Below are positions 11,019 through 46,611 of a DNA stretch of 64,000 nucleotides, piece after piece. Source of the DNA: a virus. Lineage: Duplodnaviria; Heunggongvirae; Uroviricota; Caudoviricetes. The notes under the pieces are model-generated. The model saw only the letters and a list, made by a program, of their open reading frames with translations. It was not told the DNA's origin and searched no databases. The translations under genes were made by a program, and so were the position numbers. Every line of letters starts with the position of its first letter. Within the stretch, counting starts at the first letter, position 1. The DNA lies in IMG/VR virus record IMGVR_UViG_3300038300_000093. One strand, given 5' to 3'.

Positions 11019-11276
11019 TTAACAAGTACAATCGTTATTATTTATTGCGTCTTCGACTCTTCTTTGAAGGCTAGTAACATATCCTACTGTTACGATTCCA
11101 GTTTCATAGTTTTCGATACAATAGGACATACACAGATCACATTCAAGCTTTCGCTTATCTTCTGTCATGTCACTTGCCAAGCCAGTAACTATGAATCTTT
11201 TTGCCGTTGGGCTCCAAATAGATTTGCCCTTTGGAAAATTGGCTTTCAATAAATTTATGTACTGTAGTCTATTCAT
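11019..11276 (-). CDS. hypothetical protein (85 aa)
   Basis: ORF-track ORF; module upstream. Confidence 0.55.
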   Translation of the reverse strand: MNRLQYINLLKANFPKGKSIWSPTAKRFIVTGLASDMTEDKRKLECDLCMSYCIENYETGIVTVGYVTSLQRRVEDAINNNDCTC

Positions 11277-11348
11277 TTCTATGTCCTTTTCTTTAAGTTG
11301 TTATACTATAAGGGCTCAAGCTCATTGTTCAAGCCCTGTTTTAAAAGT

Positions 11349-11684
11349 TTATGCTTTTATTGTATAAGATTCTCCGTCAGCAGTTTTAATAGAAGCAATT
11401 TCTTCTTGAGAAATTTCAAAGTCAACCATTTTCAAGACTTCTCTAAGTCCTCTTGTGCCTTCTCCGCAATATCCCCATGAAAGAGCGTTAAAGCGCACGA
11501 TACAGTTGTCAAAGTGCATATAAACACGATTCCACAACTTGTCATTATACATGGCCTGCTTGTGCCTTCTTGGAGCTCTTAGTATAACTTTCTCAAGCTT
11601 ACCAAACTTAGAGAGATTCTTCTTTGCACACTTAATACTCTTGCTTGTGCTGTGATCTGCGAATCTAATATATTTCTTTGTCAT
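11349..11684 (-). CDS. hypothetical protein (111 aa)
   Basis: ORF-track ORF; module upstream. Confidence 0.55.
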   Translation of the reverse strand: MTKKYIRFADHSTSKSIKCAKKNLSKFGKLEKVILRAPRRHKQAMYNDKLWNRVYMHFDNCIVRFNALSWGYCGEGTRGLREVLKMVDFEISQEEIASIKTADGESYTIKA

Positions 11685-11754
11685 TGTATTGTCCTTTTCT
11701 TTAAGTTGATATCAATATAGGGGCATTTAGGGCTTTTGCAAGCCCTGTTTTGAA

Positions 11755-11928
11755 TTAATCACATACAATATTTATGTGTACTTCTAACAACTTGCCGTCA
11801 TCGTCCATGATGGAATCATCTACCATTGAGATTTCCCTTAAGTCCCCATCATCCCATAAAGAGATTGGAACTGATTTATCTTCTACTAGGGAGAGCTCGT
11901 CTATAAGATCTTGAACTGTGTTAATCAT
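11755..11928 (-). CDS. small acidic protein (57 aa), not in the ORF track
   Basis: Hand-translated: MINTVQDLIDELSLVEDKSVPISLWDDGDLREISMVDDSIMDDDGKLLEVHINIVCD. Sits between two modules with AAAAGGACAAAGAAA before the ATG. Confidence 0.45.
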   Translation of the reverse strand: MINTVQDLIDELSLVEDKSVPISLWDDGDLREISMVDDSIMDDDGKLLEVHINIVCD

Positions 11929-11998
11929 TTTCTTTGTCCTTTTGTTAAGTTGATATACTATAAGGGCTCAAACTGTTAATTCAAGCCCTACTTTAAAA

Positions 11999-12352
11999 TT
12001 AACTCATAATCTTGTTTCTTTGTTTTTCCTTCATGATCCTGCTTTCTTCTGAGTACTTAATCCAGTCCTTGATGTTATTTTCTAGCCTGTCCATCTCAAT
12101 TCTATCCCGTCCATCTTGCCACTCTTCATCATTCATAGGATAATCGTCATTCTCGATTACATCATAGATTATAAAATCTTGATTCATGTAAATCTCTAGC
12201 CTTGTGTAATCCTCATCCTTTCGATCATACATATTAATGCAAACAGAATCATAATCAAACACTAAGCTTATACTATAACGCTCTGTAAGCTTATCACAGT
12301 CAACTACAATCTCTTTCATTCTTTCCATCATTTGAAACATTAGTACGCTCAT
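11999..12352 (-). CDS. hypothetical protein (117 aa)
   Basis: ORF-track ORF; module upstream. Confidence 0.6.
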   Translation of the reverse strand: MSVLMFQMMERMKEIVVDCDKLTERYSISLVFDYDSVCINMYDRKDEDYTRLEIYMNQDFIIYDVIENDDYPMNDEEWQDGRDRIEMDRLENNIKDWIKYSEESRIMKEKQRNKIMS

Positions 12353-29195: not shown

Positions 29196-29366
29196 CTATA
29201 GTTCATCTCCTACTATCTCCCAGTATCTAGATCTATGGGGCTGAATTAATAAATGTCCATCCTCACATGATTCTTTATTTTCCCTACAATACAAACATAA
29301 TTTGTATTTACTTTCTATGAACACCTTGTAAGTCTTTAAACATAAAATACAATTCACGGTTTTCAC
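29196..29366 (-). CDS. Cys-x2-Cys zinc-ribbon micro-protein (56 aa, GTG start)
   Basis: Hand-translated: (V/M)KTVNCILCLKTYKVFIESKYKLCLYCRENKESCEDGHLLIQPHRSRYWEIVGDEL. SD-like AGAGGAA 8 nt before the GTG. GTGA overlap with the upstream gene's stop. Confidence 0.4.
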   Translation of the reverse strand: MKTVNCILCLKTYKVFIESKYKLCLYCRENKESCEDGHLLIQPHRSRYWEIVGDEL

Positions 29367-29548
29367 TTTAGATATTCCTCTCTGTCAGATACTACCAAAA
29401 CGCCTTTCTCACATTTAATCATTTTCTTGATGCAAATAAAACAATAAAGTCCTGAAAGTGAATGCTCATCGACAGGCCAATCTATATGAGAAGAAGTGAA
29501 ATAATGCATCCCACATAAATAACAAATGTCTCTCGAATCATATTTCAT
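29363..29548 (-). CDS. Cys-x2-Cys zinc-ribbon micro-protein (61 aa)
   Basis: ORF-track ORF containing CYLCGMH...CFICIKK. Start context CACGAAAGTTGATATG. Confidence 0.5.
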   Translation of the reverse strand: MKYDSRDICYLCGMHYFTSSHIDWPVDEHSLSGLYCFICIKKMIKCEKGVLVVSDREEYLK

Positions 29549-29549
29549 A

Positions 29550-29735
29550 TCAACTTTCGTGCCTTATCTTCTCACCTACTATCATTAAACCTCCTCTGCC
29601 ATGATAAAAACTATTGTATTTAATGCGAAAACAACTGTTACATAAAATCTTATCAAGTAATATTAAATGACGATCAGGTTCATAAATAACCACATCACCA
29701 GTTATACATAAACTACATTTAAAATGTTTTTCCAC
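29550..29735 (-). CDS. Cys-x2-Cys zinc-ribbon micro-protein (61 aa, GTG start)
   Basis: ORF-track ORF containing CSLC...CNSC. The start codon at 29735-29733 is GTG, lying inside the conserved CACGAAAGTG motif. Confidence 0.45.
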   Translation of the reverse strand: MEKHFKCSLCITGDVVIYEPDRHLILLDKILCNSCFRIKYNSFYHGRGGLMIVGEKIRHES

Positions 29736-29898
29736 TTTCGTGCCTTATCTTCTTAGAGATATATAAATAACCATTATATGCAAAAGAAGATCTGTACTTT
29801 AGATAGTGACAACTTTGACACAAATCTTCAAACCCAACATGTTGAGAATCGCAAAGATTACACTCGACTTTTATGTTATAACTACTCCCACAATCCAT
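29719..29898 (-). CDS. Cys-x2-Cys zinc-ribbon micro-protein (59 aa), not in the ORF track
   Basis: Hand-translated: MDCGSSYNIKVECNLCDSQHVGFEDLCQSCHYLKYRSSFAYNGYLYISKKIRHESGKTF. Start context CACGAAAGTTGATATG. Confidence 0.4.
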   Translation of the reverse strand: MDCGSSYNIKVECNLCDSQHVGFEDLCQSCHYLKYRSSFAYNGYLYISKKIRHESGKTF

Positions 29899-29899
29899 A

Positions 29900-30070
29900 T
29901 CAACTTTCGTGCCTTATCTTTTTAGAAATGAATAAACTGCCATCCATGCTATACTTCTTACTAAGTTTAAAACAATCAAAACAGAAACTACCACTACAAA
30001 CAATACTACTGTTTGAAAAAAATACAGTTGCATAATCGCGATTACAAAAAGTACATTGATAAGAATGCAT
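29900..30070 (-). CDS. Cys-x2-Cys zinc-ribbon micro-protein (56 aa), not in the ORF track
   Basis: Hand-translated: MHSYQCTFCNRDYATVFFSNSSIVCSGSFCFDCFKLSKKYSMDGSLFISKKIRHES. TGATATG overlap with the next gene. Confidence 0.4.
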   Translation of the reverse strand: MHSYQCTFCNRDYATVFFSNSSIVCSGSFCFDCFKLSKKYSMDGSLFISKKIRHES

Positions 30071-30100: not shown

Positions 30101-30355
30101 TCAACATCTGTACTTTGTATCATTACCAGAAGGAGGAATCTTATTAAACTTAGGAAGTTCAGGCTTACCAGTATGAGCATCGTTCAACTCTTCAAGTGTA
30201 GCAGTTGTCTGCTTCTCTCGTAAAGGATCTATCTCATGTACAAATGTTAAATTTAAATGATTCTTAACTATCTTTACTTGCTCGTCTGTCATTTCATCAG
30301 ATCCAGAGATCTCAAAAAAACCCTGTAACCAAAAACAAAAATCTATACTATTCAT
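30101..30355 (-). CDS. hypothetical protein (84 aa)
   Basis: ORF-track ORF. Confidence 0.5.
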   Translation of the reverse strand: MNSIDFCFWLQGFFEISGSDEMTDEQVKIVKNHLNLTFVHEIDPLREKQTTATLEELNDAHTGKPELPKFNKIPPSGNDTKYRC

Positions 30356-30356: not shown

Positions 30357-30509
30357 TTACTTCCTCACCATTCTAGTCTTATTACAATCTGGACAAACAA
30401 ACATATAAGGAATTGGCTCCTTCTTATCTGTAAAGAATCCTATCCTATACATAAGTGTACAAGGAGGCGCTGGTGGACATTTATGTTTCTTCTTTTTCTT
30501 CTTTCCCAA
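30357..30509 (-). CDS. small basic zinc-ribbon protein (about 50 aa, TTG start), copy 1 of a duplicated gene
   Basis: Hand-translated: (L/M)GKKKKKKHKCPPAPPCTLMYRIGFFTDKKEPIPYMFVCPDCNKTRMVRK. Canonical SD AAGGAG 9 nt upstream of TTG. A second copy about 90% identical at the nucleotide level lies at 52960-53112. Confidence 0.45.
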   Translation of the reverse strand: MGKKKKKKHKCPPAPPCTLMYRIGFFTDKKEPIPYMFVCPDCNKTRMVRK

Positions 30510-30685
30510 CTCTCTTCTCCTTCATTTAAAAATTCATTAAACATTACAAGAATGATTGGCATTCCGGGTCTCCGCAGATAACTATAATATTTATTAAATC
30601 TTTCACATCCATTTATACCGTTAAATTATCTTAGATATATAATATAAAACAAGATTATAATTTTGCAAGACGATTCTTTAATTTT

Positions 30686-31260
30686 TATCTCTCGTGCTCA
30701 AATGGTCTACTTTTCCCATATAGAGAAAGACAAAATTCTTTTACAGTTCCCTTGTCTGCCAGATTCATCTGACAGACGTCTTTAATATACACGCCCAAAC
30801 CAACTTGTCAAGCCCCAAATCATTCACAACATGTAAAAACTTACACACTAATATATCTAATCAATCACTCTGGGTAATCTTTTACTCATTAACTTCTCCC
30901 CGACTGGGATCTTTCGGTCTTTCCCTATATGCCAGAATAACACTTTTCGTGCTTGAGGAGTCTACTTTTCCCATATAGAAGAAGACAACAATCCCCCAAC
31001 AGGGAAACAATCATTATTTACTTTCGTGTCTTATCTTATCCTATATAACAATAATAACACTTTTTGTGCTTGAGAGGTCTTCTTTTCCCATATAGAGAAA
31101 GACAAAATTTACTTTCGTGTCTTAACTTCTGGTAGATCCATCTGACAGAATGACCTGAACGGGTTCTTTTTATATCTCTCAGGGCTTTCTGACAAAAAAA
31201 GAAATTTTAAACTTTCGTGCTCAAATGGTCTACTTTTACCATATAGAAGAAGACAAAAAT
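30686..31260. repeat. four dispersed copies of a ~47-bp element CTTTCGTGCT(CAAATG/TGAGGA)GTCTACTTTTCCCATATAGARAAGACAAAA
   Basis: Copies at about 30686-30740, 30943-30998, 31062-31112 and 31205-31258. Each carries an imperfect inverted repeat around TATATGGG. Interspersed are TCTGACAG boxes (30770, 31140, 31188, 31375, 31425) and family-B motifs. Confidence 0.6.
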
Positions 31261-31516
31261 AACTTAATGAATATTATTCTGTACATTCCTCTGGGTTGAT
31301 GGCTAATATTCTGTACAATAGTTGCACAAACATCTATTCATTGGGTTATATCTGGGTTAAAAGATGCACAAGCATCTGACAAATCTACTTTTTTTTGAAA
31401 ATCCTTTTTTCAAATCTGACAGAATTTTTAATTTCTGGGACATTTGTCAGTCTTTTTTGTGTTTTTTTGCTATTTTTTGCTATTTATCACTGTTATTTGA
31501 CCCGTATTTCTAATTC

Positions 31517-31603
31517 AAAAACATTTCACGCCCTCTACACTAATATCTATTTGAGGTTAAATTTAATTAACATCAAACATTTCACGCCCTCTACACTAAT
31601 ATA
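31517..31603. repeat. 28-bp direct repeat AACATTTCACGCCCTCTACACTAATAT, two copies 55 bp apart
   Basis: Exact duplication at 31517-31547 and 31572-31603, in non-coding DNA. Confidence 0.6.
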
Positions 31604-31897
31604 GTAATATGTTATATATTAATTATTAAATCTATATCCCAGAGAGCCTTTTGGGGCATCTGTGCTGTATTTAGACAATTAAAACGTTATGGAGGTCATA
31701 TTATGCCTTACTCGCTCTCTAAGGAGCTTAATTGGCATATTAATTTCAACTAGTTTTAAGTAAAGCGTTTTAAAGATTGCAATATGATTACTATGTTACT
31801 ACTATACCTACATATATACTCTTGGTAGTCTATATAGGTATATGTATTATATGTTCTACTGTATATATCTATTCTAGTATATGCTTTTTGTATTTAT

Positions 31898-31974
31898 CTA
31901 TTTTTTTGTACTTGTAGTGTTTACTCATATTTTTTCTTGTATCTTATAATTTGCACTTGTAGTCTTTACTTATC
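31898..31974. repeat. AT-rich direct repeats GYACTTGTAGTSTTTACTYATNTTTTTTCTTG, two copies
   Basis: 31898-31929 and 31942-31974, inside a >200-bp AT-rich tract (31780-31990) with no ORF. Confidence 0.5.
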
Positions 31975-31992
31975 TTTTTTCTTGGATTGTAT

Positions 31993-32232
31993 TTATTGTT
32001 TCCATTTTCCTAGGAAGTAATTCAGATTCATTCCTGAGCCATAGCCAATTTTCTCATCTATTAATTTTTCAAAATTTAAGCTGAAATTCTCGTCATAAAT
32101 AAATAGGCAGCCTTTAAATTCTTCCTTGTATTTTCTAGGAACTATGCTACTACTATACAGGTTAAATTCTATTGGGAATATATTGTCGAATACTTTCCTG
32201 TGATCTTCTTCTTTTATATTCTTATATTTCAT
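31993..32232 (-). CDS. KGCLFVYDD-family paralog (79 aa)
   Basis: Contains FKGCLFIYDENF; first member of the tandem array. Confidence 0.6.
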   Translation of the reverse strand: MKYKNIKEEDHRKVFDNIFPIEFNLYSSSIVPRKYKEEFKGCLFIYDENFSLNFEKLIDEKIGYGSGMNLNYFLGKWKQ

Positions 32233-32324
32233 TGCTTAGAGGGTCTTCTATTATTTAAAGTTTTACAGAATAAATTAAAGCCCCATTCTCTGAGAAAGTC
32301 ATCCAGATCTATTCCGGTATTCTT

Positions 32325-32500
32325 TTGAACTTTTTCCTGTCCTGTCCTGTCCGGCTCTTGTGGCTCTTGCTCTGTCTTGTCCTCTTGTGGCTCTTGCCTT
32401 GCTTTATTCTGTCCGGCTCTTGTGGCTCTTGCTCTTGTCCGGCTTTGCCTTGCTTTGCTCTTGTCCTCTTGTGGCTCTTGCTCTGTCCTGCCCTGCTCTG
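32325..32500. repeat. GC-rich minisatellite (CTCTTGTGGCTCTTGC / TGTCCGGCT units)
   Basis: At least 7 tandem units. Encodes the low-complexity tail of ORF 32404-32655. The same CCGGCTCTTG unit occurs at 19085-19125 inside ORF 18676-19182. Confidence 0.6.
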
Positions 32501-32655
32501 TCTAGTATTTTTTCAAATCTTGAGCTGAAATTATCGTCGTAAACAAATAGGCATCCTTTATATTCTTCCTTGAATCTAACTGGGCAGAATCCTATTGGGA
32601 ATATATTGTCTAAGACCTTATCGTGATCTTTAATATCTATATGCTTATCATTCAT
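32404..32655 (-). CDS. KGCLFVYDD-family paralog with a low-complexity tail (83 aa)
   Basis: Contains YKGCLFVYDDNF. The C-terminus is encoded by the GC-rich repeat at 32325-32500. Confidence 0.55.
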   Translation of the reverse strand: MNDKHIDIKDHDKVLDNIFPIGFCPVRFKEEYKGCLFVYDDNFSSRFEKILDRAGQDRARATRGQEQSKAKPDKSKSHKSRTE

Positions 32656-32658
32656 TAT

Positions 32659-32946
32659 TTAAAGTCTCTTAGACATTCCATTCTGGCTTGTGGTTGAGAG
32701 TAGTCTTGGAGTTCTTCCTTGTAGGTTTACCCTATTCCATTCTCTTAGGAAGTATTCCAATGTTAATCCTGAACTATAGCCTATTTTCTCATCCATTAAA
32801 TCTTCAAACTTTAAGATGAATTCCTCATCGTATACAAATAGGCAGCCTTCGTATTCTTCCTTGTATTTAATCGGGTGGAATCCTACTGGAAATATGTTCT
32901 CTACTACCTTCTTGTGATCTTCTTCTTCTATTACTTTATAGTTCAT
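32659..32946 (-). CDS. KGCLFVYDD-family paralog (95 aa)
   Basis: Contains YEGCLFVYDEEF. Confidence 0.6.
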   Translation of the reverse strand: MNYKVIEEEDHKKVVENIFPVGFHPIKYKEEYEGCLFVYDEEFILKFEDLMDEKIGYSSGLTLEYFLREWNRVNLQGRTPRLLSTTSQNGMSKRL

Positions 32947-33135
32947 TTACTGCAATCTTGCAAAGAGGGCTGATTTACAAATTTCTTTCCTGAACTCTTC
33001 ATCGTAAATAAATAGACATCCTTCGTATTCAGCATTATACGGCCATCGCCTTGACAGCCTTGACCTATACTCCTCCTTATAGAAATTGTTTCTTGCCTTC
33101 TTATAGTCTTCTTTCTCTATTACTTTATAGTTCAT
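32947..33135 (-). CDS. KGCLFVYDD-family paralog (62 aa)
   Basis: Contains YEGCLFIYDEEF. TAAATG junction with the next gene. Confidence 0.55.
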   Translation of the reverse strand: MNYKVIEKEDYKKARNNFYKEEYRSRLSRRWPYNAEYEGCLFIYDEEFRKEICKSALFARLQ

Positions 33136-33329
33136 TATTTATTCCATTCTTTGTCATTCCATTCTTTGAGGAAACATTCCAAATTATCAAAGCTTGAGCA
33201 GAACTTATCATCATATATAAATAGGCATCCTTTAAATTCTTCTTTACATTTTCTTGGGTTGAATACTAATGGGAATACGTTGTTGAATGCTTTCTTATAG
33301 TCTTCTTCTTTTATATGCTTATCATTCAT
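33135..33329 (-). CDS. KGCLFVYDD-family paralog (64 aa)
   Basis: Contains FKGCLFIYDDKF. Confidence 0.55.
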   Translation of the reverse strand: MNDKHIKEEDYKKAFNNVFPLVFNPRKCKEEFKGCLFIYDDKFCSSFDNLECFLKEWNDKEWNK

Positions 33330-33332
33330 TAT

Positions 33333-33533
33333 TTAAAGCTTCCAATGAAAATGGACTTTTCCAACTTCTTCCTTGAAAAGATCATCATATACAAATAGGC
33401 ATCCTTGGAAGTTATCACCAATAATTCTTTTATGCAATATCGCTCTCTCCAACCGTTTATTTCTGATTCTCTCTCTTATAAAGTTTTCCGTTGTCTTCTG
33501 ATAGTCTTCAATGTCTATATGTTTATAGTTCAT
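33333..33533 (-). CDS. KGCLFVYDD-family paralog (66 aa)
   Basis: Contains FQGCLFVYDDLF. Confidence 0.55.
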   Translation of the reverse strand: MNYKHIDIEDYQKTTENFIRERIRNKRLERAILHKRIIGDNFQGCLFVYDDLFKEEVGKVHFHWKL

Positions 33534-33718
33534 TACAATCGCCAGTGTGGAAATTGCATTTCAAAGCTTTCCTTGAAGAGATCATCATATACAAATAGGC
33601 ATCCTTTATATTCATCACTATATAAGTTAACTGTTACAGAGTCTTTTCTACATCTCTCAGTGTGGAAATTGTACATTGTCTTCTGATGGTATTTCTCATC
33701 TATATTCTTATAATTCAT
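33533..33718 (-). CDS. KGCLFVYDD-family paralog (61 aa)
   Basis: Contains YKGCLFVYDDLF. Confidence 0.55.
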   Translation of the reverse strand: MNYKNIDEKYHQKTMYNFHTERCRKDSVTVNLYSDEYKGCLFVYDDLFKESFEMQFPHWRL

Positions 33719-33721
33719 TAT

Positions 33722-33946
33722 TCACTTCTGCAGTCTAAGATTTAGGTATTCAAGGTCATGAAATTTGTCAAATTTTTCCTTAAATTTGTCATCATATACA
33801 AATAGACATCCTTTATATTCTTCACTATATAGAAGTGGAGTTCCTCTAAACTGTATTCTACGAATCTCTTCCCTGAAATTTTGTCTTGCCTTCGAATAGT
33901 CTTCAATGTCTATATGTTTATAGTTCATTAGCCAATACAGCTCCAC
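33722..33946 (-). CDS. KGCLFVYDD-family paralog (74 aa)
   Basis: Contains YKGCLFVYDDKF. Confidence 0.55.
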   Translation of the reverse strand: MELYWLMNYKHIDIEDYSKARQNFREEIRRIQFRGTPLLYSEEYKGCLFVYDDKFKEKFDKFHDLEYLNLRLQK

Positions 33947-34251
33947 ATAAGGCTTATAATATAATCCACTCTTTTATGGACTTCTGCCATTGATGGTTGA
34001 TCTATAACTACTCCAAAGAAAATCCCACCATATGACTCAGAACCATCTGGGTTTATTCCAAGTTCAATAGAACCAAATCCCTTATGTCCATTCACAGTGA
34101 AATAGTAAGATCGCTCACAGTCACATTCAGTATCACAGTCACAATACTCTGCATGACAAGCAACATTACTATCTTTATAGTTTTTAACCATCATTCTCAT
34201 TTCTCTTTTATCGCATACATATAAGAATACTTGACTTTGATAGCTTGTCAA
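33928..34251 (-). CDS. Cys-rich hypothetical protein (107 aa)
   Basis: ORF-track ORF containing CHAEYCDCDTECDC. Confidence 0.5.
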   Translation of the reverse strand: MTSYQSQVFLYVCDKREMRMMVKNYKDSNVACHAEYCDCDTECDCERSYYFTVNGHKGFGSIELGINPDGSESYGGIFFGVVIDQPSMAEVHKRVDYIISLMWSCIG

Positions 34252-34374
34252 GCTTTTTATCGTTTAAATTCTTTTTTATGTGTTGTCTAATCGTTAAGCC
34301 ATTTAACTTCTTTTTCTTATAATCATATCCTATTATCTTGTAATAATCCATCAATATATATTAAGTGCTCCATG

Positions 34375-34560
34375 CTATCTCTCATCATTACAATGAACAG
34401 GTTGAATTGCAGTTGAATATCTGTCCCAATTCAAGTTTATCCCTAAACCAGCTTCAACTTTTTCTGCCATTCGGAGAGACTTATTTGGTTCACCAATCTT
34501 CTCAACCTTTCCGGTCTCATCACATATAACTACAACTTGATGTCTCATTTCTGTACTCAT
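34375..34560 (-). CDS. hypothetical protein (61 aa)
   Basis: ORF-track ORF; preceded by a degenerate family-A module at 34561-34625. Confidence 0.5.
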   Translation of the reverse strand: MSTEMRHQVVVICDETGKVEKIGEPNKSLRMAEKVEAGLGINLNWDRYSTAIQPVHCNDER

Positions 34561-34643
34561 TTATTTGTCCTTTTGTTTTAATCTTACTATAAAGGATTAA
34601 TTGGACTTTTCAAGCCCTTCTGGTAAGAAAACATACTCTATAC

Positions 34644-35045
34644 TTATTTCACATAATATTGCGGGTAATCAGAAAAAATATAACTCATGCTTTGATGATC
34701 TTCCATTAGTTTATCATCAAATACGAACAGGCAGCCTTTGAATTTACTATTATCCATTATACCTGTTCTATAATTGTCCATTGCTACCTCTTGATTCTTC
34801 TTATCTATTATTTTACACTCTAAGCCGGATTCCAAAGTCATTTGTACCATTTGTGCCATCTTGCAATCCCAGCCTATACCACTCTTTTCTTTTTGAAATT
34901 CTCTAAGGAAGTTATCATCATATATAAATAGACAGCCTTTATGCTTATTCATCTTTAACTGTAAGTGATAATTTGCCAATGCTTCATCATAGCTTTCTAC
35001 TATCTTATTTTTTATTTTCAACATCATTAATTCTCCATAGTTCAC
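34644..35045 (-). CDS. fused tandem duplication of the KGCLFVYDD family (133 aa)
   Basis: Two motif copies in one ORF: HKGCLFIYDDNF and FKGCLFVFDDKL. Confidence 0.55.
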   Translation of the reverse strand: MNYGELMMLKIKNKIVESYDEALANYHLQLKMNKHKGCLFIYDDNFLREFQKEKSGIGWDCKMAQMVQMTLESGLECKIIDKKNQEVAMDNYRTGIMDNSKFKGCLFVFDDKLMEDHQSMSYIFSDYPQYYVK

Positions 35046-35119
35046 TTTCGTCTTTTTTGTGTTATAAGTCTTTATAAATTAAACCTTTACATGTATGAAA
35101 TGTCACTAACTCTTCGCTT

Positions 35120-35347
35120 TCATTCCTTAGCCTTTTTATTTAGTAGTATCTCTGATAGTACGGCCTCACAGTCAGTGCAATAATCATATGCTTCATTAAA
35201 TTTTTTTGCGCCAACCCCTTTAACACCTTCGAGTTCACTGAATAACCACATACACTTACGCAAAAGTGGCAATAATTCATCTTTAACTTTCTTTTTTTCT
35301 GATGATGTCATTTCTCTAACTCCTTTTCTTACTTGACTCTCGTACAA
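35120..35347 (-). CDS. hypothetical protein (75 aa)
   Basis: ORF-track ORF. Confidence 0.5.
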   Translation of the reverse strand: MYESQVRKGVREMTSSEKKKVKDELLPLLRKCMWLFSELEGVKGVGAKKFNEAYDYCTDCEAVLSEILLNKKAKE

Positions 35348-35673
35348 TCTCTACTTTCATACGACTGTACCCACATCAATATATCTTCTGTTCTGTCATT
35401 CTTTATACTTCTCTCTAAGCATCTTCTTGCGAATGGATTTAGATGTGCTAATGCCAAGCTTACTCTTTCTTGTGAACATGGTAATTCTACTTTTACAGCT
35501 TGGTTTCCTTTATCCTCTTCGCTCTCTCTTGTCTTATATTTATAAGTAGAAACTACTTTAGGATACATGGCAGATAAGTTAGCACTAAACTCTTTCATTT
35601 TACTAAAGTCATCAAACTCTAATGTAGCCTTTGATATTCCAGAAAGGACTTTAAATTCCCAGTACGTAATCAT
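35329..35673 (-). CDS. hypothetical protein (114 aa)
   Basis: ORF-track ORF. Confidence 0.5.
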   Translation of the reverse strand: MITYWEFKVLSGISKATLEFDDFSKMKEFSANLSAMYPKVVSTYKYKTRESEEDKGNQAVKVELPCSQERVSLALAHLNPFARRCLERSIKNDRTEDILMWVQSYESRDCTRVK

Positions 35674-35737
35674 TGTTTAATTCCTCTTAATAACTTTTCT
35701 ATTTCTTCATGAGCCATTGCCATTCTCTATCCTTCTG

Positions 35738-36592
35738 TCATATTAAATACATTAATATTTCTTTTGCCTCTTCGCTGAGGTTTTCTATATTAACACATTT
35801 TATAGCTTCTTTGTTTTGTCTGACTGCTTCTATCTGTACTTTCTCGGTAGGATTTATTATATTTCCAATTGAAGAAAAATTTTGTCTTACTGCAATTAAC
35901 TGCGCTTCTTCACATGGATTCTTTATATATTGTATTGCAGAACATATTTCCTCCACAGCTTTAATTTGTACTTCTTTGCTGGCGTTGTTTATTCTCTTTA
36001 TTACAAGGCCATCTTGACCAACCGCTTCTAATTGAATTGCTTTACTGGGATTCTTTATATACATTATTGAATCAGCAGTTTCTTTAATAGCAATCAAACA
36101 AGCTTTCACGCATGGATTCTTTATATATCTCAGTGACTCACAGTTTTCACTGACTGCTTCCATTTGAACTTCTTCATCTGGGTTGTTTATACTCTTTATA
36201 GCAAGGCCATCTTCTTCCACAGCCTCTAGTTGAATATACTTATTGGGATTATCAATATACATTATTGAATCAGGACATTGTTTAACTGCTTCCAACTGTA
36301 CTTCTTCACTAGGATTCTTTATATATCTAATTGATAATCCTGACTTTTTAACAGCAGCCAATTGAAGTTCTTCGCTTGGATTATCAATGAATTTTATAAC
36401 ATCTCCATTTATCCTAATTGACTTCAAACATTTATCTTTATCATAAATGTCAAATCCTATTGATTTTACCTTTTGTTCCTTCAGGTATTCTGTTAAATCT
36501 TTCATTTTACTTCTACATTGTTTATTTGGTTGACCAAGACTTATTACATCCAATACATATCCAACCTGATGTACGAGATTTAGTGTCGTCAT
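35738..36592 (-). CDS. tandem-repeat protein (284 aa) with about eleven ~23-aa repeats I.NPSEEVQLEAVKQ.G.AI.YI
   Basis: The periodic repeat is visible in the translation and resembles the DUF4116 repeat class (EEVQLAAVKQNG.AL.YA). This assignment is from memory, not from a search. Confidence 0.6.
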   Translation of the reverse strand: MTTLNLVHQVGYVLDVISLGQPNKQCRSKMKDLTEYLKEQKVKSIGFDIYDKDKCLKSIRINGDVIKFIDNPSEELQLAAVKKSGLSIRYIKNPSEEVQLEAVKQCPDSIMYIDNPNKYIQLEAVEEDGLAIKSINNPDEEVQMEAVSENCESLRYIKNPCVKACLIAIKETADSIMYIKNPSKAIQLEAVGQDGLVIKRINNASKEVQIKAVEEICSAIQYIKNPCEEAQLIAVRQNFSSIGNIINPTEKVQIEAVRQNKEAIKCVNIENLSEEAKEILMYLI

Positions 36593-36722
36593 TTGGCACT
36601 ATAACTCTGTTGTCGCATTCATGATTTTTAACCAATTCAACAACATCTTTAAATTCTTTCTTTTTATAATTCATATATAAAAATACATGCCTTTAGGAGA
36701 TTTTCAAGCTGTTTCTTGTTTT

Positions 36723-36992
36723 TTATTCGTAATCATAATGTGACATCTTAAAGAGCCAATCTTTTAACCAGTAACCATCTTTTCTTCTCTTAAAGACTCG
36801 CTCATTCTCAAAGCCATTCGGCCAATGATAACATTTAGTATCGTTGAAATAGAAAGAAAATGAATTATCATAAACGAATAAACATCCTTGAAATTCTTTC
36901 TGTCTCTGATAGCCACCACTTATAGTTACAAGGTCTATGTTTTTTGCCACTTTATCATGGTCTTTCATTCCTATTTCTTTATAATGTATCAT
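36723..36992 (-). CDS. KGCLFVYDD-family paralog (89 aa)
   Basis: Contains FQGCLFVYDNSF. Confidence 0.55.
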   Translation of the reverse strand: MIHYKEIGMKDHDKVAKNIDLVTISGGYQRQKEFQGCLFVYDNSFSFYFNDTKCYHWPNGFENERVFKRRKDGYWLKDWLFKMSHYDYE

Positions 36993-37492
36993 ACTAAATA
37001 TATCAAAAGATCTTTCGTCTCTTCAGTTAATCTGTCTATATCTACAAATTCAATATTATCCCCACACCTTTTCACTGCTTCCAGTATGACTTTCTCAGTG
37101 GGATTCTTTATAAGCGCAAATGATGTGGGTAAAATTTCAATAGCTGCTAATTGGACTTTCTCGCTGGGATTTCTTATAACTTCAAGACAGTTTGGATCGT
37201 CTTTTATAGCTTGGATAAAAACCTCTTCGCAGGGATCTTCTATAACCATTATGACGTAGCCATTTTCTTTGACGGCTGCCATTTGAAGTTCTTTACTTGG
37301 GTTATCAATATAAATTATATTATATCCATCATTTTGAACAGCAGATAACTTAACAGCTTCACTTGCGTTCTTCATATGGGTTATCTTGTAATTCTTTAGG
37401 ATTATAGCTTCTATGCATTTAGTTTCATCGGAAATATCAAACCCTAATAATTTACTTCTAGCTTTCTTTAAATACTCTGTTGCATCTCTCAC
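36989..37492 (-). CDS. tandem-repeat protein (167 aa), same repeat class as ORF 35738-36592
   Basis: Repeats NPSKELQMAAVKENGYVI / NPSEKVQLAAIE... Confidence 0.55.
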   Translation of the reverse strand: MRDATEYLKKARSKLLGFDISDETKCIEAIILKNYKITHMKNASEAVKLSAVQNDGYNIIYIDNPSKELQMAAVKENGYVIMVIEDPCEEVFIQAIKDDPNCLEVIRNPSEKVQLAAIEILPTSFALIKNPTEKVILEAVKRCGDNIEFVDIDRLTEETKDLLIYLV

Positions 37493-37655
37493 ATTATAAA
37501 ATTCCTATTTATGAAGCCCCAATCACAGACTTTGACTAGATATTCTAAGAATTCACTATCACATACAAACAGACAACCTTTGAAGTCCAGACCTTTCCTG
37601 CCTTTACGCCTATTTATCATAATCTTATGATATTCAATTTTTTTTACAGCTGTCA

Positions 37656-37922
37656 TTATGAATGCCCAAATCTATGATTGTAATAAATGTTTAATTCTAT
37701 CTTCTTTCTATTTTTCAGCCAATCATCTAAGCTTCGAATAGGATTAGAATTCATAGGATCGCTATACATACTTATCAATCCATTTAAGAAACAATCTGCG
37801 TGATCTTCAAATTCTTGATCATATAGAAATAAACATCCTTTTATTTCTTCATTATTAATCATGGACAGTGAATCTATTACTTTACTGTAATCATCTGAAT
37901 GTATTTTTTTTATAGTTATCAT
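37656..37922 (-). CDS. KGCLFVYDD-family paralog (88 aa)
   Basis: Contains IKGCLFLYDQEF. An additional degenerate unannotated copy, DFKGCLFVCDSEF, lies at about 37500-37640. Confidence 0.5.
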   Translation of the reverse strand: MITIKKIHSDDYSKVIDSLSMINNEEIKGCLFLYDQEFEDHADCFLNGLISMYSDPMNSNPIRSLDDWLKNRKKIELNIYYNHRFGHS

Positions 37923-38119
37923 TTTGGTCTTATCTCAAGCCAACTATCCAAGCTGAGGTATAATTGATTAAAGTATTTCTCAAATTTTTCATCATATACG
38001 AACAAACAGCCTTTGAATTTTTTAATATTGTGATCTTTTGAACCAAGATTTATTGTTATTATCACATTGCTCAAAGTCTTTTCAAGATCATTTCTTGGCC
38101 TGCCGTTGTATTTTATCAT
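37919..38119 (-). CDS. KGCLFVYDD-family paralog (66 aa)
   Basis: Contains FKGCLFVYDEKF. Confidence 0.55.
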   Translation of the reverse strand: MIKYNGRPRNDLEKTLSNVIITINLGSKDHNIKKFKGCLFVYDEKFEKYFNQLYLSLDSWLEIRPK

Positions 38120-38124
38120 ACTTA

Positions 38125-38343
38125 TTAAAAGCCTTTGTTTTCTGGCTCTTCATAAGTAGTTTCTACTTCTGGCTTTGGAACCTCTTTCGGTACATCATTC
38201 ATATCCCATATTCTAGGTGGGAATATATCTATATTCCATTTGCCCTTTCCTATTGGTAGTCCGAAGAATAGTGCAGTTATCAACATGATAAAAACTATCA
38301 AACTAAAGCAACCACACCCACCGTTATTATTATCTTCACTCAC
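38125..38343 (-). CDS. small membrane protein (72 aa)
   Basis: Hydrophobic segment SLIVFIMLITALFFGL. Confidence 0.5.
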   Translation of the reverse strand: MSEDNNNGGCGCFSLIVFIMLITALFFGLPIGKGKWNIDIFPPRIWDMNDVPKEVPKPEVETTYEEPENKGF

Positions 38344-38406
38344 AACATAATCCTTCTTTTGTTATTATATCTCGTACTGTATCACTTGAAATAAGGATTG
38401 CAAGTT

Positions 38407-38619
38407 CTATTTTTTTATTTTAAAGTTTCCTACGTTCGTACCACAATTGGTATTCCCATCTCTGTTGAACAATTCTACGTTATCAACTTCCCTAGATACG
38501 AAATCAACACAACCCTTATGGTCATAAGTGACAAATTGTATAAGGCCACTTTCAGTGTATATTATTGCACCAAACATTTTGCCTCTTTTGTCTATATCTT
38601 TAAGCATATCCTCATTCAT
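38407..38619 (-). CDS. hypothetical protein (70 aa)
   Basis: ORF-track ORF. Confidence 0.45.
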   Translation of the reverse strand: MNEDMLKDIDKRGKMFGAIIYTESGLIQFVTYDHKGCVDFVSREVDNVELFNRDGNTNCGTNVGNFKIKK

Positions 38620-39175
38620 TTCTTAATTCCTTTTTATGTGATATAAATAAACTTCCTGCATATCTTTTAGGGAAAGCAAAGAAGGAATGAAAGTCTCTAA
38701 TAGCAATATGTTCTTCTTTGTTTAACTCTAAGCGGAGATTATCTATACATTGATATTCTGTTTCTCCCGTGTTGAACAAATCTTCTGCATTTATCTCCAC
38801 ATTTAATCTTTGGTTATCATGATAACCATTCATTCCAACCAACTGCAGGTCTTTAGGCTCAAATGAATTTACCAGTGAAATGGCATAGTATAAAGCTTCA
38901 ACGTCTGTTGTTGAAAAACAATCCATATCTACTTCGCCCTTAGAATTTGCCATATCTAATAAACTAATATCTTCTTCGAGCGTATAAATGGCCGAGTTCA
39001 ACATTAGAAACTTCTTATCAAACTCTTTTCTTGTTATCGTTCTCCCATGCATTCTTATGTGAAACCTATCCGCAGTAAACATGCAAGACCTCAAAGCATT
39101 CTCATCCATTTGGGGAATCTTAGACTTTAAAAACTTTACTGCATTTATAAGCGATTTTTCCTCATACATAATCAT
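38612..39175 (-). CDS. hypothetical protein (187 aa)
   Basis: ORF-track ORF. Confidence 0.55.
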   Translation of the reverse strand: MIMYEEKSLINAVKFLKSKIPQMDENALRSCMFTADRFHIRMHGRTITRKEFDKKFLMLNSAIYTLEEDISLLDMANSKGEVDMDCFSTTDVEALYYAISLVNSFEPKDLQLVGMNGYHDNQRLNVEINAEDLFNTGETEYQCIDNLRLELNKEEHIAIRDFHSFFAFPKRYAGSLFISHKKELRNE

Positions 39176-39738
39176 CTCTCCAAGATTACCTCTTTCAATA
39201 CTTCCCTTTGAAAGTCCTTGAAGAATCTGTCTAGTATTTCATCAACGCCCTCTGTTCTTGCTCTTGCAAGTATCTCAGCATTTTCTTTTAAAAGAGAGTT
39301 TATTATATGCCTCAACACCTTTGTGCAATTAATCTTCCATTCAATATCTTTACTTTTAATTCTATCTTTGTAGTGGCTAATTACAACGTCAAGTATTAAG
39401 AATATTTTCTTTTGCTCAAAATTTGAATTGATTATTTCTTCATAAGAATTAAGTTTATTAAATTCTAAAATAGAACTGTTCGCTTTTGACATAATGCCAC
39501 TTAAAGCTTTTTTTCTTTCCCTGTATTTTAAATGATTCATTTTATCCATGTTATCACTTAATTCTTTTATACAATTGTCAACTTCTACCTTTGTAAAATT
39601 AAACTCTATTCCTTTGAAACTAACCGTATGGTATGGCTTCGCTGCTTTTTCCTTCTCTTGTCCAAAACAAGCCAAACTTAATGATAACATCAAAATAAAC
39701 TTAATCACAATTCTTCCTTGTCTGATATTTCCAGCCAT
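39172..39738 (-). CDS. putative lipoprotein or secreted protein (188 aa)
   Basis: Signal peptide with a lipobox-like LSLACFG. Confidence 0.55.
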   Translation of the reverse strand: MAGNIRQGRIVIKFILMLSLSLACFGQEKEKAAKPYHTVSFKGIEFNFTKVEVDNCIKELSDNMDKMNHLKYRERKKALSGIMSKANSSILEFNKLNSYEEIINSNFEQKKIFLILDVVISHYKDRIKSKDIEWKINCTKVLRHIINSLLKENAEILARARTEGVDEILDRFFKDFQREVLKEVILER

Positions 39739-39902
39739 CCTTCTTCTAGATCATCATCCCATCCATAACCTTTCCCGAAGCTAAATTTGAAACTTTGTCC
39801 AAGCCTTATTATTGCTTCAGAGGCTTCCTTAGAGGAAAGAGAAACTTTATTCATCGCCTTAATTGATTGTTTAAAATTGAGGTTTAAATCTTCTAGTTTC
39901 AC
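39705..39902 (-). CDS. small protein ending ..EGWLEISDKEEL (65 aa)
   Basis: C-terminal motif family. Confidence 0.45.
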   Translation of the reverse strand: MKLEDLNLNFKQSIKAMNKVSLSSKEASEAIIRLGQSFKFSFGKGYGWDDDLEEGWLEISDKEEL

Positions 39903-40074
39903 AGTACTTCCTCTATCTCATACACCCTTAAATAACCTTTATCTTTATATCTAACAACTTTTTCTAGGCAAGACAAACAGTCCCACTTATCAATTTCATC
40001 ATCACGAAATAAAGACGTAGATTCAATCTTACATATATTGCAAACATTGTAGTCTTTACTTCTCACTCATCCTC

Positions 40075-40374
40075 CTAAAATATTGATAATACCAAATCTA
40101 ATCCTTCTTCTTTATTATATGACTCAACTTCATAGAATTTTAATACTTCATCAATAAATTTAGAAGCTCTCTCACAATTATAAATAATTATTTCCTCAAG
40201 GTCTCCCTCGTAATCACACTTTTCCGTCATATAGCCATCGTTCAACTCTATATCGACTTTCTCTGCAATCTCCCACAGTTCATTCTTAACTTGGTAAAAA
40301 GCTCTATTTGAGCATCCAAATATTATTTTAAAGAATGGGCTCGGCGTGACTATTTTAGCATCTTTTGGTTTCAT
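40075..40374 (-). CDS. hypothetical protein (99 aa)
   Basis: ORF-track ORF. Confidence 0.5.
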   Translation of the reverse strand: MKPKDAKIVTPSPFFKIIFGCSNRAFYQVKNELWEIAEKVDIELNDGYMTEKCDYEGDLEEIIIYNCERASKFIDEVLKFYEVESYNKEEGLDLVLSIF

Positions 40375-40583
40375 ATTTCTTCCTTTGTGTATATTCTCAG
40401 TGAACTTCCATTATCTTCTTCTTCAATTCTTCTCATAAAACAAGGCAAATCGTATTTCCAATTCCAACCGCATGAGTTATGCATTGATTCTCCAGCATTA
40501 GGGCAATTACTTCTTTCCAAGTCATCATCTACTGGATAATCGCCAGTTGCCCTGTAAAAATACTCTGCAGTTATCCCACTCAT
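40371..40583 (-). CDS. small Cys-containing protein ending ..LRIYTKEEI (70 aa)
   Basis: C-terminal motif family. Confidence 0.5.
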   Translation of the reverse strand: MSGITAEYFYRATGDYPVDDDLERSNCPNAGESMHNSCGWNWKYDLPCFMRRIEEEDNGSSLRIYTKEEI

Positions 40584-40760
40584 TGCTTTATATCCATCTC
40601 TCTTCGTAATTTTCTACATTACTTGCAAGAAGATCCAATTCTTCAATCTGATCGCTTGTAATTGTGTCAGCAATGGAAAGATCAATCAATAAACTAACTC
40701 TTGCGAGTGCTTCCTCGTACTGCTTGTCTGTTTCAATTGGTTTATATTCCATTGTATTCC

Positions 40761-40979
40761 TTAACTATTGTGATATCCTCTTGTGTGAAGCCAGACTTCC
40801 AAATCATCCACTCCGTCTATTTCATTATATTTTTTTTCAAACTCATCATCGTATACAAACAGACATCCTTGAAATTCTTTCTTTATGATCATATAATTCT
40901 CAGACGGTAATTCTTGAAGATGTGTGTTCTCAATAGCCTTCTCGTAATCAGACTTATTTATTTTCTTCAAATGTATCAT
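40761..40979 (-). CDS. KGCLFVYDD-family paralog (72 aa)
   Basis: Contains FQGCLFVYDDEF. Confidence 0.55.
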   Translation of the reverse strand: MIHLKKINKSDYEKAIENTHLQELPSENYMIIKKEFQGCLFVYDDEFEKKYNEIDGVDDLEVWLHTRGYHNS

Positions 40980-45670: not shown

Positions 45671-46435
45671 TTAATTCCAAACAAACGATTCTTTATCTTT
45701 AGAATCTATAATAGAAGATGTAATGTAATTAATCACAGTACGCTCTACTTCCAAATTGGGGTTGCTTCTTGCTTGATGCTTTTCTGGAAGAGATTCAATC
45801 TCCTCAGTTGTAAACTTGGATATAGACTTTGATCTTTTGATACAAATTCCATTCCTATAGCATTCCGGCATCTTAAGCCAATCATTATTATCTTCTTCAA
45901 GCATCTTCTTCATTTCCCACGTCTTCTTCTCTTGAAGCTGTTTGTGGCTAAATACAGACTGAGCTAAACAACTTACGCTATTTCTTCTACAATCCTCTGC
46001 TCTCCACTCCAAACACTCAATAGCTGTTTGCTTGTCTGGTACTTCAAAGATACGACAGTCAAACAATGCCATTACATCAGAATTTGATAAGTTGTTGAAA
46101 TGATAAGTAGCCAAGCTTGCCAATACTGAGCAAAGCTTCATGAATTTTCCACCAAAGAATAATTCTTGATTATCACTCTTCTTTGTCAAAACTAAACTTA
46201 TTTCATCAGATTGAGTATAACCGATATCAGCATCACAATATAATACCAATTCCTCCGTGACTTTTTTCATTTGATTGAAAAATTTCTCATCAAATGGCTT
46301 CTCGCAATTGATGGATTTAGTATATTTACTAAAGTTCTTGCCATCCAATCTAATTATTATCGGCTTGTCACCTGAGGGCTTATAGTTAAACTCTCTTTCA
46401 TATTCTTTAAGCTTGTCGCCAAGTGGATCTTTCAT
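45671..46435 (-). CDS. Thg1-like protein (tRNA-His guanylyltransferase family, 3'-5' nucleotidyltransferase)
   Basis: PIIIRLDGKNFSKYTK ... ADIGYTQSDEISLVLTKKSDNQELFFGGKFMKLCSVLASLATYHFN matches the Thg1 core (VVVRLDGRNFHRF ... AYGQSDEYSFVF ... R.SK..T..AS.F...Y). Start chosen at MKDPLGD (ATGA coupling to an upstream micro-ORF); the track's longer ORF would start at 46465. Confidence 0.75.
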   Translation of the reverse strand: MKDPLGDKLKEYEREFNYKPSGDKPIIIRLDGKNFSKYTKSINCEKPFDEKFFNQMKKVTEELVLYCDADIGYTQSDEISLVLTKKSDNQELFFGGKFMKLCSVLASLATYHFNNLSNSDVMALFDCRIFEVPDKQTAIECLEWRAEDCRRNSVSCLAQSVFSHKQLQEKKTWEMKKMLEEDNNDWLKMPECYRNGICIKRSKSISKFTTEEIESLPEKHQARSNPNLEVERTVINYITSSIIDSKDKESFVWN

Positions 46436-46611
46436 TCTTTTATCCTTTTTAGTTCTCTTAAGCATAACTTACAAGTGACTTTATCTGTATTGTAAGTTAT
46501 GTCATCCCTAACATAGCCGCACTCTGTGCTATGATTATATTCGTAATCGGTTTGACCTGAATTTCTAAAGTCTTTACCTCTCAAAAACATGTGTATTTTC
46601 GGATTTCTCAT
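46432..46611 (-). CDS. zinc-ribbon micro-protein (59 aa), not in the ORF track
   Basis: Hand-translated: MRNPKIHMFLRGKDFRNSGQTDYEYNHSTECGYVRDDITYNTDKVTCKLCLRELKRIKE. ATGA overlap with the Thg1-like start. Confidence 0.35.
   Translation of the reverse strand: MRNPKIHMFLRGKDFRNSGQTDYEYNHSTECGYVRDDITYNTDKVTCKLCLRELKRIKE

Follow-up and report, generated by a model that had tools for sequence, protein, structure and literature searches.

A conserved non-coding region with an early promoter and gene-less leader cassettes, a possible cis-acting control module of an uncultured large phage

The largest gene-free gap in a 64,000-nt stretch of DNA from an uncultured tailed phage (IMG/VR record IMGVR_UViG_3300038300_000093; the whole stretch is hereafter called the window) lies at positions 30510-31992 and is dense in repeats. 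This region is real, non-coding, and under selection, since the order and spacing of its motifs have been kept across lineages whose silent sites have diverged by 40%. From its sequence, we tentatively favor the interpretation that it may be a conserved cis-acting control module for early transcription, built from gene-less leader cassettes, an account that is plausible although far from certain. The initial annotation had proposed a candidate replication origin or regulatory hub. The second half of that proposal gained support from a conserved promoter and from leader boxes shared with genes, whereas for an origin no specific support emerged, the architecture being compatible with one.

The window has a G+C content of 33%, and all of its open reading frames (ORFs) of at least 150 aa lie on the minus strand. 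The region was accordingly read in the minus-strand direction, the strand of all genes. Its phage is an uncultured, probably very large, marine-type phage. DNA similarity searches in near and distant mode against 50,697 phage records gave no match to the window, and protein matches to cultured phages were distant, with one protein of unknown function at 49-58% identity over 45-61% of its length and an RNA ligase at about 30% identity. Kinship to cultured T4-like phages was not detectable by DNA and protein comparison. The identical phage was recovered in JGI sample 3300072015 and Logan run SRR12939118. The comparisons below used a close relative, L229 (a contig of JGI 3300009136), and a distant one, L309 (NCBI JAAHTG010000049.1, 133 kb); a further, more remote relative was found on a 324-kb Tara Oceans scaffold. 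One strand carries all genes in the 64-kb window and in both sampled 20-kb stretches (a span of about 50 kb) of a relative's contig.

In a greedy minus-strand ORF map, the gap measured 1483 nt and the runner-up 526 nt, in agreement with the earlier claim that this is the only long stretch without a convincing ORF. Gene callers made no calls across the homologous stretch in the three source records. The frame read through the repeated element described below varied from copy to copy. Six-frame tblastn of the window against L309 met stops in nearly all aligned frames, and the few short stop-free matches were conserved no better than the DNA itself, so that no frame stands out as coding. The codon log-odds of element-bearing frames were -0.11 to 0.22, compared with 0.355 +/- 0.105 in real small genes. 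The region is non-coding in both lineages. It is very unlikely that leader peptides of 6-30 aa fill it instead. Some units do carry a TTG or ATG 4-6 nt behind the box of a translation-start cassette, and the four element copies of the window share MS(F/S)SIW(EK)-stop in one frame. However, start codons and frames were lost in L229 or L309: the start of a 40-aa ORF is ATG in the window and AGG in L229, that of a 29-aa ORF reading through element B changes from ATG to AGT in L229, and a frameshift in L309 breaks a 16-aa ORF of the plus strand that has a perfect GGAGG ribosome site. With lost starts, interrupted frames, and low codon scores, the coding micro-ORFs that the initial annotation had set against its own proposal were not found.

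The gene calls of L309 halt at 10612 and restart at 12111, leaving a collinear 1.5-kb gene-free region (10613-12110) in the syntenic place. Its flanks correspond to those of the window, with genes of a small paralogous family (the N-family) upstream and genes for proteins of 245, 139, 117, and 136 aa downstream, and the two regions could be aligned end to end. Identity between the window and L309 was 59.7% at 325 four-fold sites and 71.5% in aligned coding DNA. Within the region, 40-nt bins alternated, ten of them being 80-88% identical and interspersed bins 38-57%, and the binomial P per conserved island against 60% identity ranged from 1e-4 to 5e-7. The islands include an A-tract array as well as GACAAATGTCCCAGAA and TCTGTCAGATTTGAAAAA. 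The spacing of elements D-C-B is 151/117 in the window, 150/117 in L229, and 149/116 in L309, and six TATATRG motifs stand at offsets of +47, +70, and +46 in both lineages, despite common indels elsewhere in the region. Because the islands are short, sharply bounded, and fixed in their spacing, selection on motifs is a better explanation than a recent exchange of long tracts.

The elements themselves comprise four copies of a 56-nt sequence that are 71-89% identical to the reference copy (47-56 nt overall). The 64 kb contain their 29-nt core TTGTCTTYYTCTATATGGKAAAAGWAGAC (minus strand) only at these four sites in the region, against an expectation of 0.00 from shuffled sequences; the four copies of a roughly 47-bp element recognized earlier held up. 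All are co-oriented with transcription, and their starts are irregularly spaced (D-C/C-B/B-A, 151/117/255). Element D (31203-31258, minus strand) has a core, TTTTGTCTTCTTCTATATGGT, that is identical in L309 by eye, within a 40-nt bin at 88%. Element C with its tail AAGCACAAAAAGTGTTATTATTGTTATATAGG (31040-31107, the element itself at 31052-31107, minus strand) is conserved in L309; by eye the tail differs by one mismatch and is the best-conserved long stretch, and the 40-nt bin at 31072-31033 is 88% identical. Element B and its tail CATATAGGGAAAGAC occupy 30917-30990 (element 30935-30990, minus strand), with TATAGGGAAAGAC identical in L309. Element A (30680-30735, minus strand) lies inside the long leader of the transcript expected from the promoter at 30784-30816.

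This sigma-70-type early promoter, GGGGCTTGACA-16-TATATT on the minus strand, agrees with the consensus at 11 of 12 positions, and in the form TTGACA-16-TATATT it is the top sigma-70 match of the region in both lineages. Its -35 and -10 hexamers and both arms of the adjoining palindrome are conserved in L309. Its spacer and the palindrome loop, in contrast, have diverged, a pattern expected of a promoter in use. The palindrome, a perfect TCTGTCAGA-TGAA-TCTGGCAGA at 30755-30776 (minus strand), begins about 7 nt past the -10. As RNA, it would fold in both lineages into a hairpin of 10 bp right at the 5' end, the loop TGAA being replaced by CGGG in L309. Since many leaders of the main promoter family described next start with a hairpin, a 5' stabilizer is the simplest reading of the palindrome, which could alternatively be a repressor operator. 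Downstream of it, the transcript path runs through element A and a leader of 165-270 nt to a first gene that is different in each of the three genomes.

The promoter shares its GGGCTTGA -35 and TATATT -10 with about 50 promoters of the window. This main family (GGGCTTGMA...TATAGT/TATATT) stands ahead of about 50 genes in intergenic gaps of 70-100 nt, with the layout AAARYAGGGCTTGMA, a spacer frequently able to pair with the -35 region, TATAGT/TATATT, a leader that often bears the hairpin GTAAGAAGCACTAAGCAGGCTTAC, and the ribosome site AAAGGAC before the ATG. The about 50 cassettes are found at 250-26400 on the minus strand, one per 350-500 nt and each before a small ORF, and the minus strand of the window has 72 copies of GGCTTG, the plus strand 11. 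A second family has an extended -10, CTTGAAG-16-(TG)TTACTAT, followed at once by the fully conserved box AAGATAAGACACGAAAGT in both the window (22762, 23324, 23598) and L309 (17413, 18336, 18709, 19811). The identity of these first transcribed bases, about 18 in number, across paralogous copies and lineages suggests a function for the mRNA 5' end.

The same box links the region to gene cassettes. The coding strand has 13 copies of its core CACGAAAG and the opposite strand one; the core sits 4-7 nt ahead of the start codons of Cys-rich genes, heads the leaders of three genes that begin near 22737, 23299, and 23569 (boxes at 22762, 23324, and 23598, minus-strand coordinates), and has the same roles in L309. 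The box form AAGATAAGRCACGAAAGT is common to the region, gene leaders, and start sites. In an nhmmer search with the second promoter family, the boxes of the region matched at E values of 3e-6 to 5e-3; the box recurs there, whereas the full promoter does not. Two intact leader boxes on the minus strand are AAGATAAGACACGAAAGT at 31020-31037, where the ATG 6 nt behind the box is lost in L229, and AAGTTAAGACACGAAAGT at 31111-31128, immediately upstream of element C. Together with the main-family promoter at 30784-30816, they bear out the earlier remark that the region holds promoter motifs with no gene directly behind them.

Units D, C, and B lie upstream of that promoter, and each is headed by the box or a decayed copy and ends in GAGCACGAAA. 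In each cassette unit the 18-nt box AAGNTAAGRCACGAAAGT, intact or decayed, comes first; the core TTGTCTTYYTCTATATGGKAAAAG follows, and a second motif resembling the box, GAGCACGAAA, is last. The translated units are weakly similar to the Cys-rich proteins (tblastn E 0.007-0.05), and in L309 an open 60-codon ORF with a TTG start runs across two units and ends in ...KLRHES, its window counterpart having no start codon and containing a stop. Since the 18-nt box is found at the leaders of real genes and in the start cassettes of the Cys-rich genes, the units appear to derive from such cassettes; most likely they are tandem mini-gene or leader cassettes that lost their coding capacity and kept their nucleotide motifs. 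The Cys-rich genes form a tandem array of paralogues of 56-61 aa (zinc-ribbon-like) at 29196-30070 on the minus strand. Three of the five paralogues end in ...KIRHES, encoded by the 18-nt box that is also the start cassette of the following gene, which appears to be a nucleotide-level constraint written into protein termini. The conserved promoter parts within diverged surroundings and the boxes shared with early genes directly support a regulatory reading.

As a control module, the region would stand at the head of early genes that vary as a block in this large uncultured phage. Its downstream half (about 31260-30560, minus strand) would consist of four tandem gene-less cassettes, units B and A being separated by a single strong, intact early promoter of the host type (30784-30816), and the upstream half (31992-31260) would provide curved, easily melted DNA and further conserved boxes. 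Host RNA polymerase, aided by the bent upstream DNA, would begin transcription here early in infection. The TATATRG and CACGAAA motifs at fixed spacing may be sites at which a factor encoded by the phage or its host acts on the DNA or on the leader RNA, and we infer that such a factor would set the level or timing of downstream expression.

The genes downstream are indeed plastic. Right behind the module, L229 carries 2.6 kb with 12 extra small genes (1044-3643) relative to about 30530-30540 of the window, and the genes directly after the module in L309 also differ from those of the window. This plasticity fits a portable regulatory cassette, as described for PeSLs (PMC4122927). The insertion in L229 includes a DUF4116 protein; a DUF4116 gene also lies behind the module in L309, and those of the window are found upstream (35738-37492).

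PeSL and PmSL cassettes of T4-like phages (Arbiol et al. 2010; Comeau et al. 2014, PMC4122927) combine a sigma-70-type early promoter with a stem-loop, a leader, and a Shine-Dalgarno sequence. PeSL units repeat before small variable ORFs in hyperplastic regions, with degraded gene-less copies near indels (PMC4122927). The window resembles these systems in its roughly 50 cassettes at 250-26400 and the one inside the region, in the sigma-70 promoter of its own family, in units that share a box (the box only, not the whole promoter) with real gene leaders, and in the association with an indel, the 2.6-kb, 12-gene difference from L229 directly downstream. In contrast to PeSL clusters, no conserved ORF lies behind units D, C, and B, which makes the region a gene-less derivative rather than a standard PeSL array. 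It also differs in being a fixed array of four units whose order and spacing are conserved at 40% neutral divergence, and in having an upstream half of 700 nt (A-tracts, palindrome, 28-nt repeats) with no PeSL counterpart.

Several observations weigh against a control module. No factor binding the elements was identified, and the neighboring proteins belong to no known family. The element contains no valid sigma-70 -10 hexamer on either strand and no conserved RNA fold (consensus -1.3 and -3.8 kcal/mol, 0 compensatory pairs), and folding z-scores along the region were modest. Transcription explains the upstream half, with its A-tracts, palindrome, 28-nt repeats, and unstable DNA, only loosely; this half looks more like a DNA-level site such as an origin. 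The islands of high identity could in principle have arisen from recombination between lineages rather than selection. Between the window and L229, divergence was 5.1% at silent sites and 6.8% in the region, a neutral rate, and this pair was rejected as a selection test since it is too close. Finally, the module is carried by two lineages only. Protein-guided look-ups found no module in the distant relatives L230, L305-L308, L311-L312, and L347-L353, and exact-pattern scans of IMG/VR with the element core, the early-promoter pattern, the leader box, and the 28-nt repeat gave single chance matches or none. A metagenome scan with an 18-base core produced only chance matches inside common gut bacterial genes, and no relative turned up when GTDB genomes were scanned once with the N-family profile and once with the leader box.

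The upstream half holds a separate set of conserved features. The two exact 28-nt direct repeats reported earlier were confirmed at 31519-31546 and 31575-31602 (minus strand, core AGTGTAGANNGCGTGAAATGTTT); their start-to-start spacing is 56 nt, core and spacing are both kept in L309, and a third copy, 68% alike, lies at 30827-30854. A -10-like hexamer precedes the upstream copy in all three genomes (TATATT / TATAAT / CATAAT). Phased A-tracts, (CAAAAAAN)n at 31452-31480, had been missed; they number three in the window, five in L229, and five in L309, and since their phasing is exactly 10 nt, intrinsically bent DNA is predicted. Behind them, the conserved block (C/T)NGACAAATGTCCCAGAA...TCTGTCAGATTTGAAAAA (31403-31450, minus strand) is a candidate weak promoter, which reads TAGACA-16-TAAGAT in L309 and is poorer in the window. 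The 28-nt block TATGCCAATTAAGCTCCTTAGAGAGCGA (31712-31739, minus-strand sequence) is fully identical in L309 (28/28; P = 5e-7, with 60% taken as the neutral identity), and a TATA-rich imperfect palindrome, CATATACCTATATAGACTACCAAGAGTATATATGTAGGTATAGTAGTAAC at 31795-31844, is the same at about 47 of 50 nt by eye (40-nt bins at 85-88%).

This palindrome lies within an A+T-rich tract (31781-31992, 77% A+T) that also holds a conserved two-copy direct repeat, AAGATAAGTAAAGACTACAAGT at 31955-31976 and AATATGAGTAAACACTACAAGT at 31910-31931 (minus strand). The pair of AT-rich repeats of about 32 nt annotated previously is real (31898-31929 and 31943-31974) and appears as a two-copy motif in L309, but the copies are only about 72% alike. 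An AT-rich tract of more than 200 bp had likewise been noted correctly: positions 31781-31980 are 77% A+T against 67% for the window and have the lowest stability of any 200 bp in the 64 kb (z 3.5). A second A+T-rich segment, the leader at 30583-30682 (82% A+T; only one 100-bp segment of the window is less stable), separates element A from the first downstream gene, a 50-aa zinc-ribbon ORF at 30357-30509. The palindromic pattern TGNCAGA-N4-TCTGNCA, absent from the earlier description, occurs twice, at 30757-30774 and 31130-31147, the upstream copy being the imperfect palindrome TCTGTCAGATGGATCTACCAGA (31128-31149, minus strand). Where five boxes had been claimed, the exact sequence TCTGACAG was found three times, which are all three of the window, while five of the eight TCTGACA copies of the window lie here.

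A replication origin, the main rival, is a possible though doubtful explanation. An initiator would act on the repeated boxes, the A-tracts would bend the DNA, the A+T-rich tracts would melt, and the early promoter would activate or prime replication, a function that could coexist with regulation. The models are T4 oriE, with an early promoter and iterons, and oriF and oriG, with a promoter and a downstream unwinding element. Several direct-repeat families, the phased A-tracts with their variable copy number, and a strong conserved promoter 95-195 nt upstream of A+T-rich DNA are consistent with an origin, as are motifs and spacing kept in a distant lineage. The two unstable segments described above, which rank first among 200-bp and second among 100-bp stretches of the 64 kb, also fit an origin, but other segments of the window are almost equally unstable. 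The 47-nt elements are long, uneven, out of helical phase, and kin to gene leaders, and no initiator, helicase, or primase gene lies nearby. No DnaA box (TTATCCACA, at most one mismatch) was found between 27866 and 37056, that is, about 3 kb to either side, whereas the whole window has 27 matches against 20.9 expected. The electrophoretic mobility shift assay with DnaA suggested previously would therefore have no target. Cumulative GC skew, the other check suggested then, was monotonic through the region and over the 64-kb window (not the whole genome), with no extremum or turn at the region, and there is no strand switch, the genes on both sides being co-oriented.

Iterons of lambda-type and plasmid origins measure 17-22 bp, cluster in helical phase, and lie beside or within the initiator gene. 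The region shares direct repeats, an intrinsic bend, and an adjoining A+T-rich tract with such origins, but it has no initiator gene, and its repeats of 23-56 nt are out of phase at spacings of 56, 151, 117, and 255 nt. With T4 origins it shares a promoter by easily melted DNA, and syntenic conserved direct repeats, and DnaA would not be required. T4 origins have no common sequence motif, and a promoter plus an unwinding element suffice (PMC3016281); minimal T4 origins span about 100 bp, and the oriE iterons are 12 nt long and evenly spaced (PMC3016281). In contrast, the repeats of the region are 23-56 nt and uneven, its easily unwound DNA (30583-30682) starts about 95 nt from the transcription start, farther than in oriF, and it does not lie at a strand-switch or skew-shift point as several T4 origins do.

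We consider it unlikely that the region is a DNA-level site for handling the genome before the early genes, whether an entry stop like the T5 iss or a genome end and packaging region like the T7 left end. Such a site might be a two-step DNA-entry stop in a jumbo-type marine phage, a reading as speculative as the decoy function below. The T5 iss is a 1662-bp non-coding sequence with direct and inverted repeats, palindromes, and bent DNA, whose order is conserved while its neighbors are not (bioRxiv 10.1101/866236). The same pattern is seen here, where a non-coding stretch of similar length (about 1.5-1.7 kb for the two) with repeats, palindromes, and bent DNA is collinear among relatives beside genes with strong early promoters, whereas the neighboring genes are not conserved. 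The DNA downstream, where small genes and roughly 50 strong early promoters fill about 30 kb, resembles a host-takeover block. Since both are conserved, collinear, repeat-rich non-coding blocks beside variable early genes, the T5 iss is a striking formal analogue. However, the two have no sequence similarity, and the eight paired DnaA boxes and the 131-bp inverted-repeat pair (IRC/IRD) that mark the T5 site, which lies in a terminal repeat at the boundary of first-step transfer, were not seen here.

Assemblies from several samples break within the region, which could suggest a genome end. Contigs L107, L108, L229, and L310 end inside it, at element A (30734), at the 28-nt repeat (31604), or, for L310, in the A-tract array. 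Since these breaks fall at different repeats, they indicate an assembly effect and not a fixed end; the repeats break metagenome assemblies of this phage group. The region is also internal in both the 64-kb window and the 133-kb contig, no terminase gene lies nearby, and the flanking genes run the same way.

It is equally improbable that the region is functionless debris, in which decayed tandem Cys-rich genes and promoter cassettes were left by cassette-mediated deletions in a hyperplastic region. The units are in the size range of the neighboring 56-61-aa genes and lie between the same boxes, they retain weak protein similarity to the Cys-rich genes, and one open 60-codon unit is left in L309. 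A large indel adjoins the region, and degraded PeSL copies near indels are documented in T4-like phages (PMC4122927). Debris would be expected to drift at the neutral 60% identity with indels, but the units are collinear with spacing kept to 0-2 nt, and stretches of 21-31 nt are identical or nearly so by eye, corresponding to 40-nt bins at 88%. L309 retains all four elements although it has no Cys-rich array, and the upstream half is unrelated to genes.

One or more small non-coding RNA genes, either the four elements or an antisense RNA from a promoter within the upstream 28-nt repeat, are a still less probable explanation. The elements are co-oriented with transcription, and the L309 repeat contains a good antisense promoter, TTCACG-18-TGGTATAAT; the antisense consensus fold reaches -14 kcal/mol with four compensatory pairs (from two sequences only), and the L309 segment folds at z -3.7. 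In the window, however, the antisense promoter is weak and the corresponding segment folds at a z of only -1.2 to -1.5, covariation is limited to the two sequences, and the element fold given above is negligible and has no compensatory pairs. No Rfam family matched at its gathering score, weak matches were not common to the two lineages, ARAGORN found no tRNA or tmRNA, and the only terminator-like structure was one unconserved hairpin. The earlier alternative that the repeats are promoters for short non-coding RNAs was not borne out, given the lack of a valid -10, a conserved fold, or terminators.

We give little credence to a decoy function, in which a factor would be titrated by the TATATRG core and by the CACGAAAG boxes of the array, 3-5 of them intact and others decayed. 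Such a factor, for which a translational repressor, a nuclease, or a protein associated with RNA polymerase are candidates, would recognize the box at the 5' ends and start sites of the early regulon. If this were true, an early-transcribed RNA, or the DNA itself, would time the expression of the regulon as a regulatory sponge made from dead gene leaders.

Mimicry of a host immune RNA, whether a CRISPR mini-array or RNA anti-CRISPR with a 28-nt repeat-spacer-repeat or a repeat RNA like a type III antitoxin, is extremely improbable. The 28 / 28 / 28 geometry at 31519-31602 speaks for it, but the two lineages share the "spacer" (by eye at about 21 of 33 nt, TAACCTCAAAT among them), so that there is no spacer turnover, the 28-nt repeat has no hairpin and no IMG/VR match, the 47-nt elements are not head-to-tail as antitoxin repeats are, and no cas or toxin gene is nearby.

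Several narrower assignments were rejected. As a plus-strand promoter resembling the early family (GTGCTTGAGG-15-TATAGA), the element has the -35 in two of four copies, a 15-nt spacer, and a -10 without the invariant final T. Resemblance to T4 MotA-type or T7-type promoters was only partial, TATA(T)GGGAAA being confined to the region. A lambda nut-like boxB hairpin (CAC-GAAAA-GTG) is present in copies B and C only, and the GGA of a CsrA-type sponge is not kept in L309. Similarity to the upstream N-family genes (GCLFVYDD) that would make the units relics of these was at chance level, and the Rfam match to Pseudomonas sRNA P1 in L309 scored 30.6 bits against a gathering score of 100 and had no equivalent in the window.

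Directly upstream of the gap, the N-family comprises at least 14 paralogous small genes at 31993-40865 on the minus strand, mostly in tandem (MNYK.I.EED..K...EYKGCLFVYDD.F). They had no Pfam or PHROG match, and homologues outside the phage lineage were very few. A low-complexity imperfect tandem repeat at 32300-32560 (CTTGTCCTGTCC / GGCTCTTGTGGCTCTTGC) encodes the charged C-terminal tail of the N-family paralogue at 32404-32655. Just downstream of the region, an 84-aa protein (30101-30355, phrog_28500) has 118 homologues with up to 92% identity across many unrelated phage contigs, including a 44-kb contig with tail genes. Farther away, a Thg1-like tRNA-His guanylyltransferase, thymidylate synthase, and an RNA ligase are encoded at 45671-46465, 55422-56273, and 61475-62458, and relatives additionally carry a T4 Rnl1-type ligase, a PNK-type kinase/phosphatase, and NAD-salvage genes. 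This tool kit for tRNA repair and nucleotides is present, yet the 64 kb contain no tRNA genes.

The known systems nearest to the module are PeSL clusters and, in form, T4 oriE and the T5 iss, but it belongs to none of them, since defining features of each are missing. Annotation of large uncultured phages mostly proceeds one gene at a time and has left their cis-acting DNA nearly unexplored. For a phage group without a cultured member, the module offers a concrete candidate that can be cloned, whether it serves as an origin, controls entry, or controls expression, and its kinship to gene cassettes suggests that leaders can outlive their genes as regulatory DNA.

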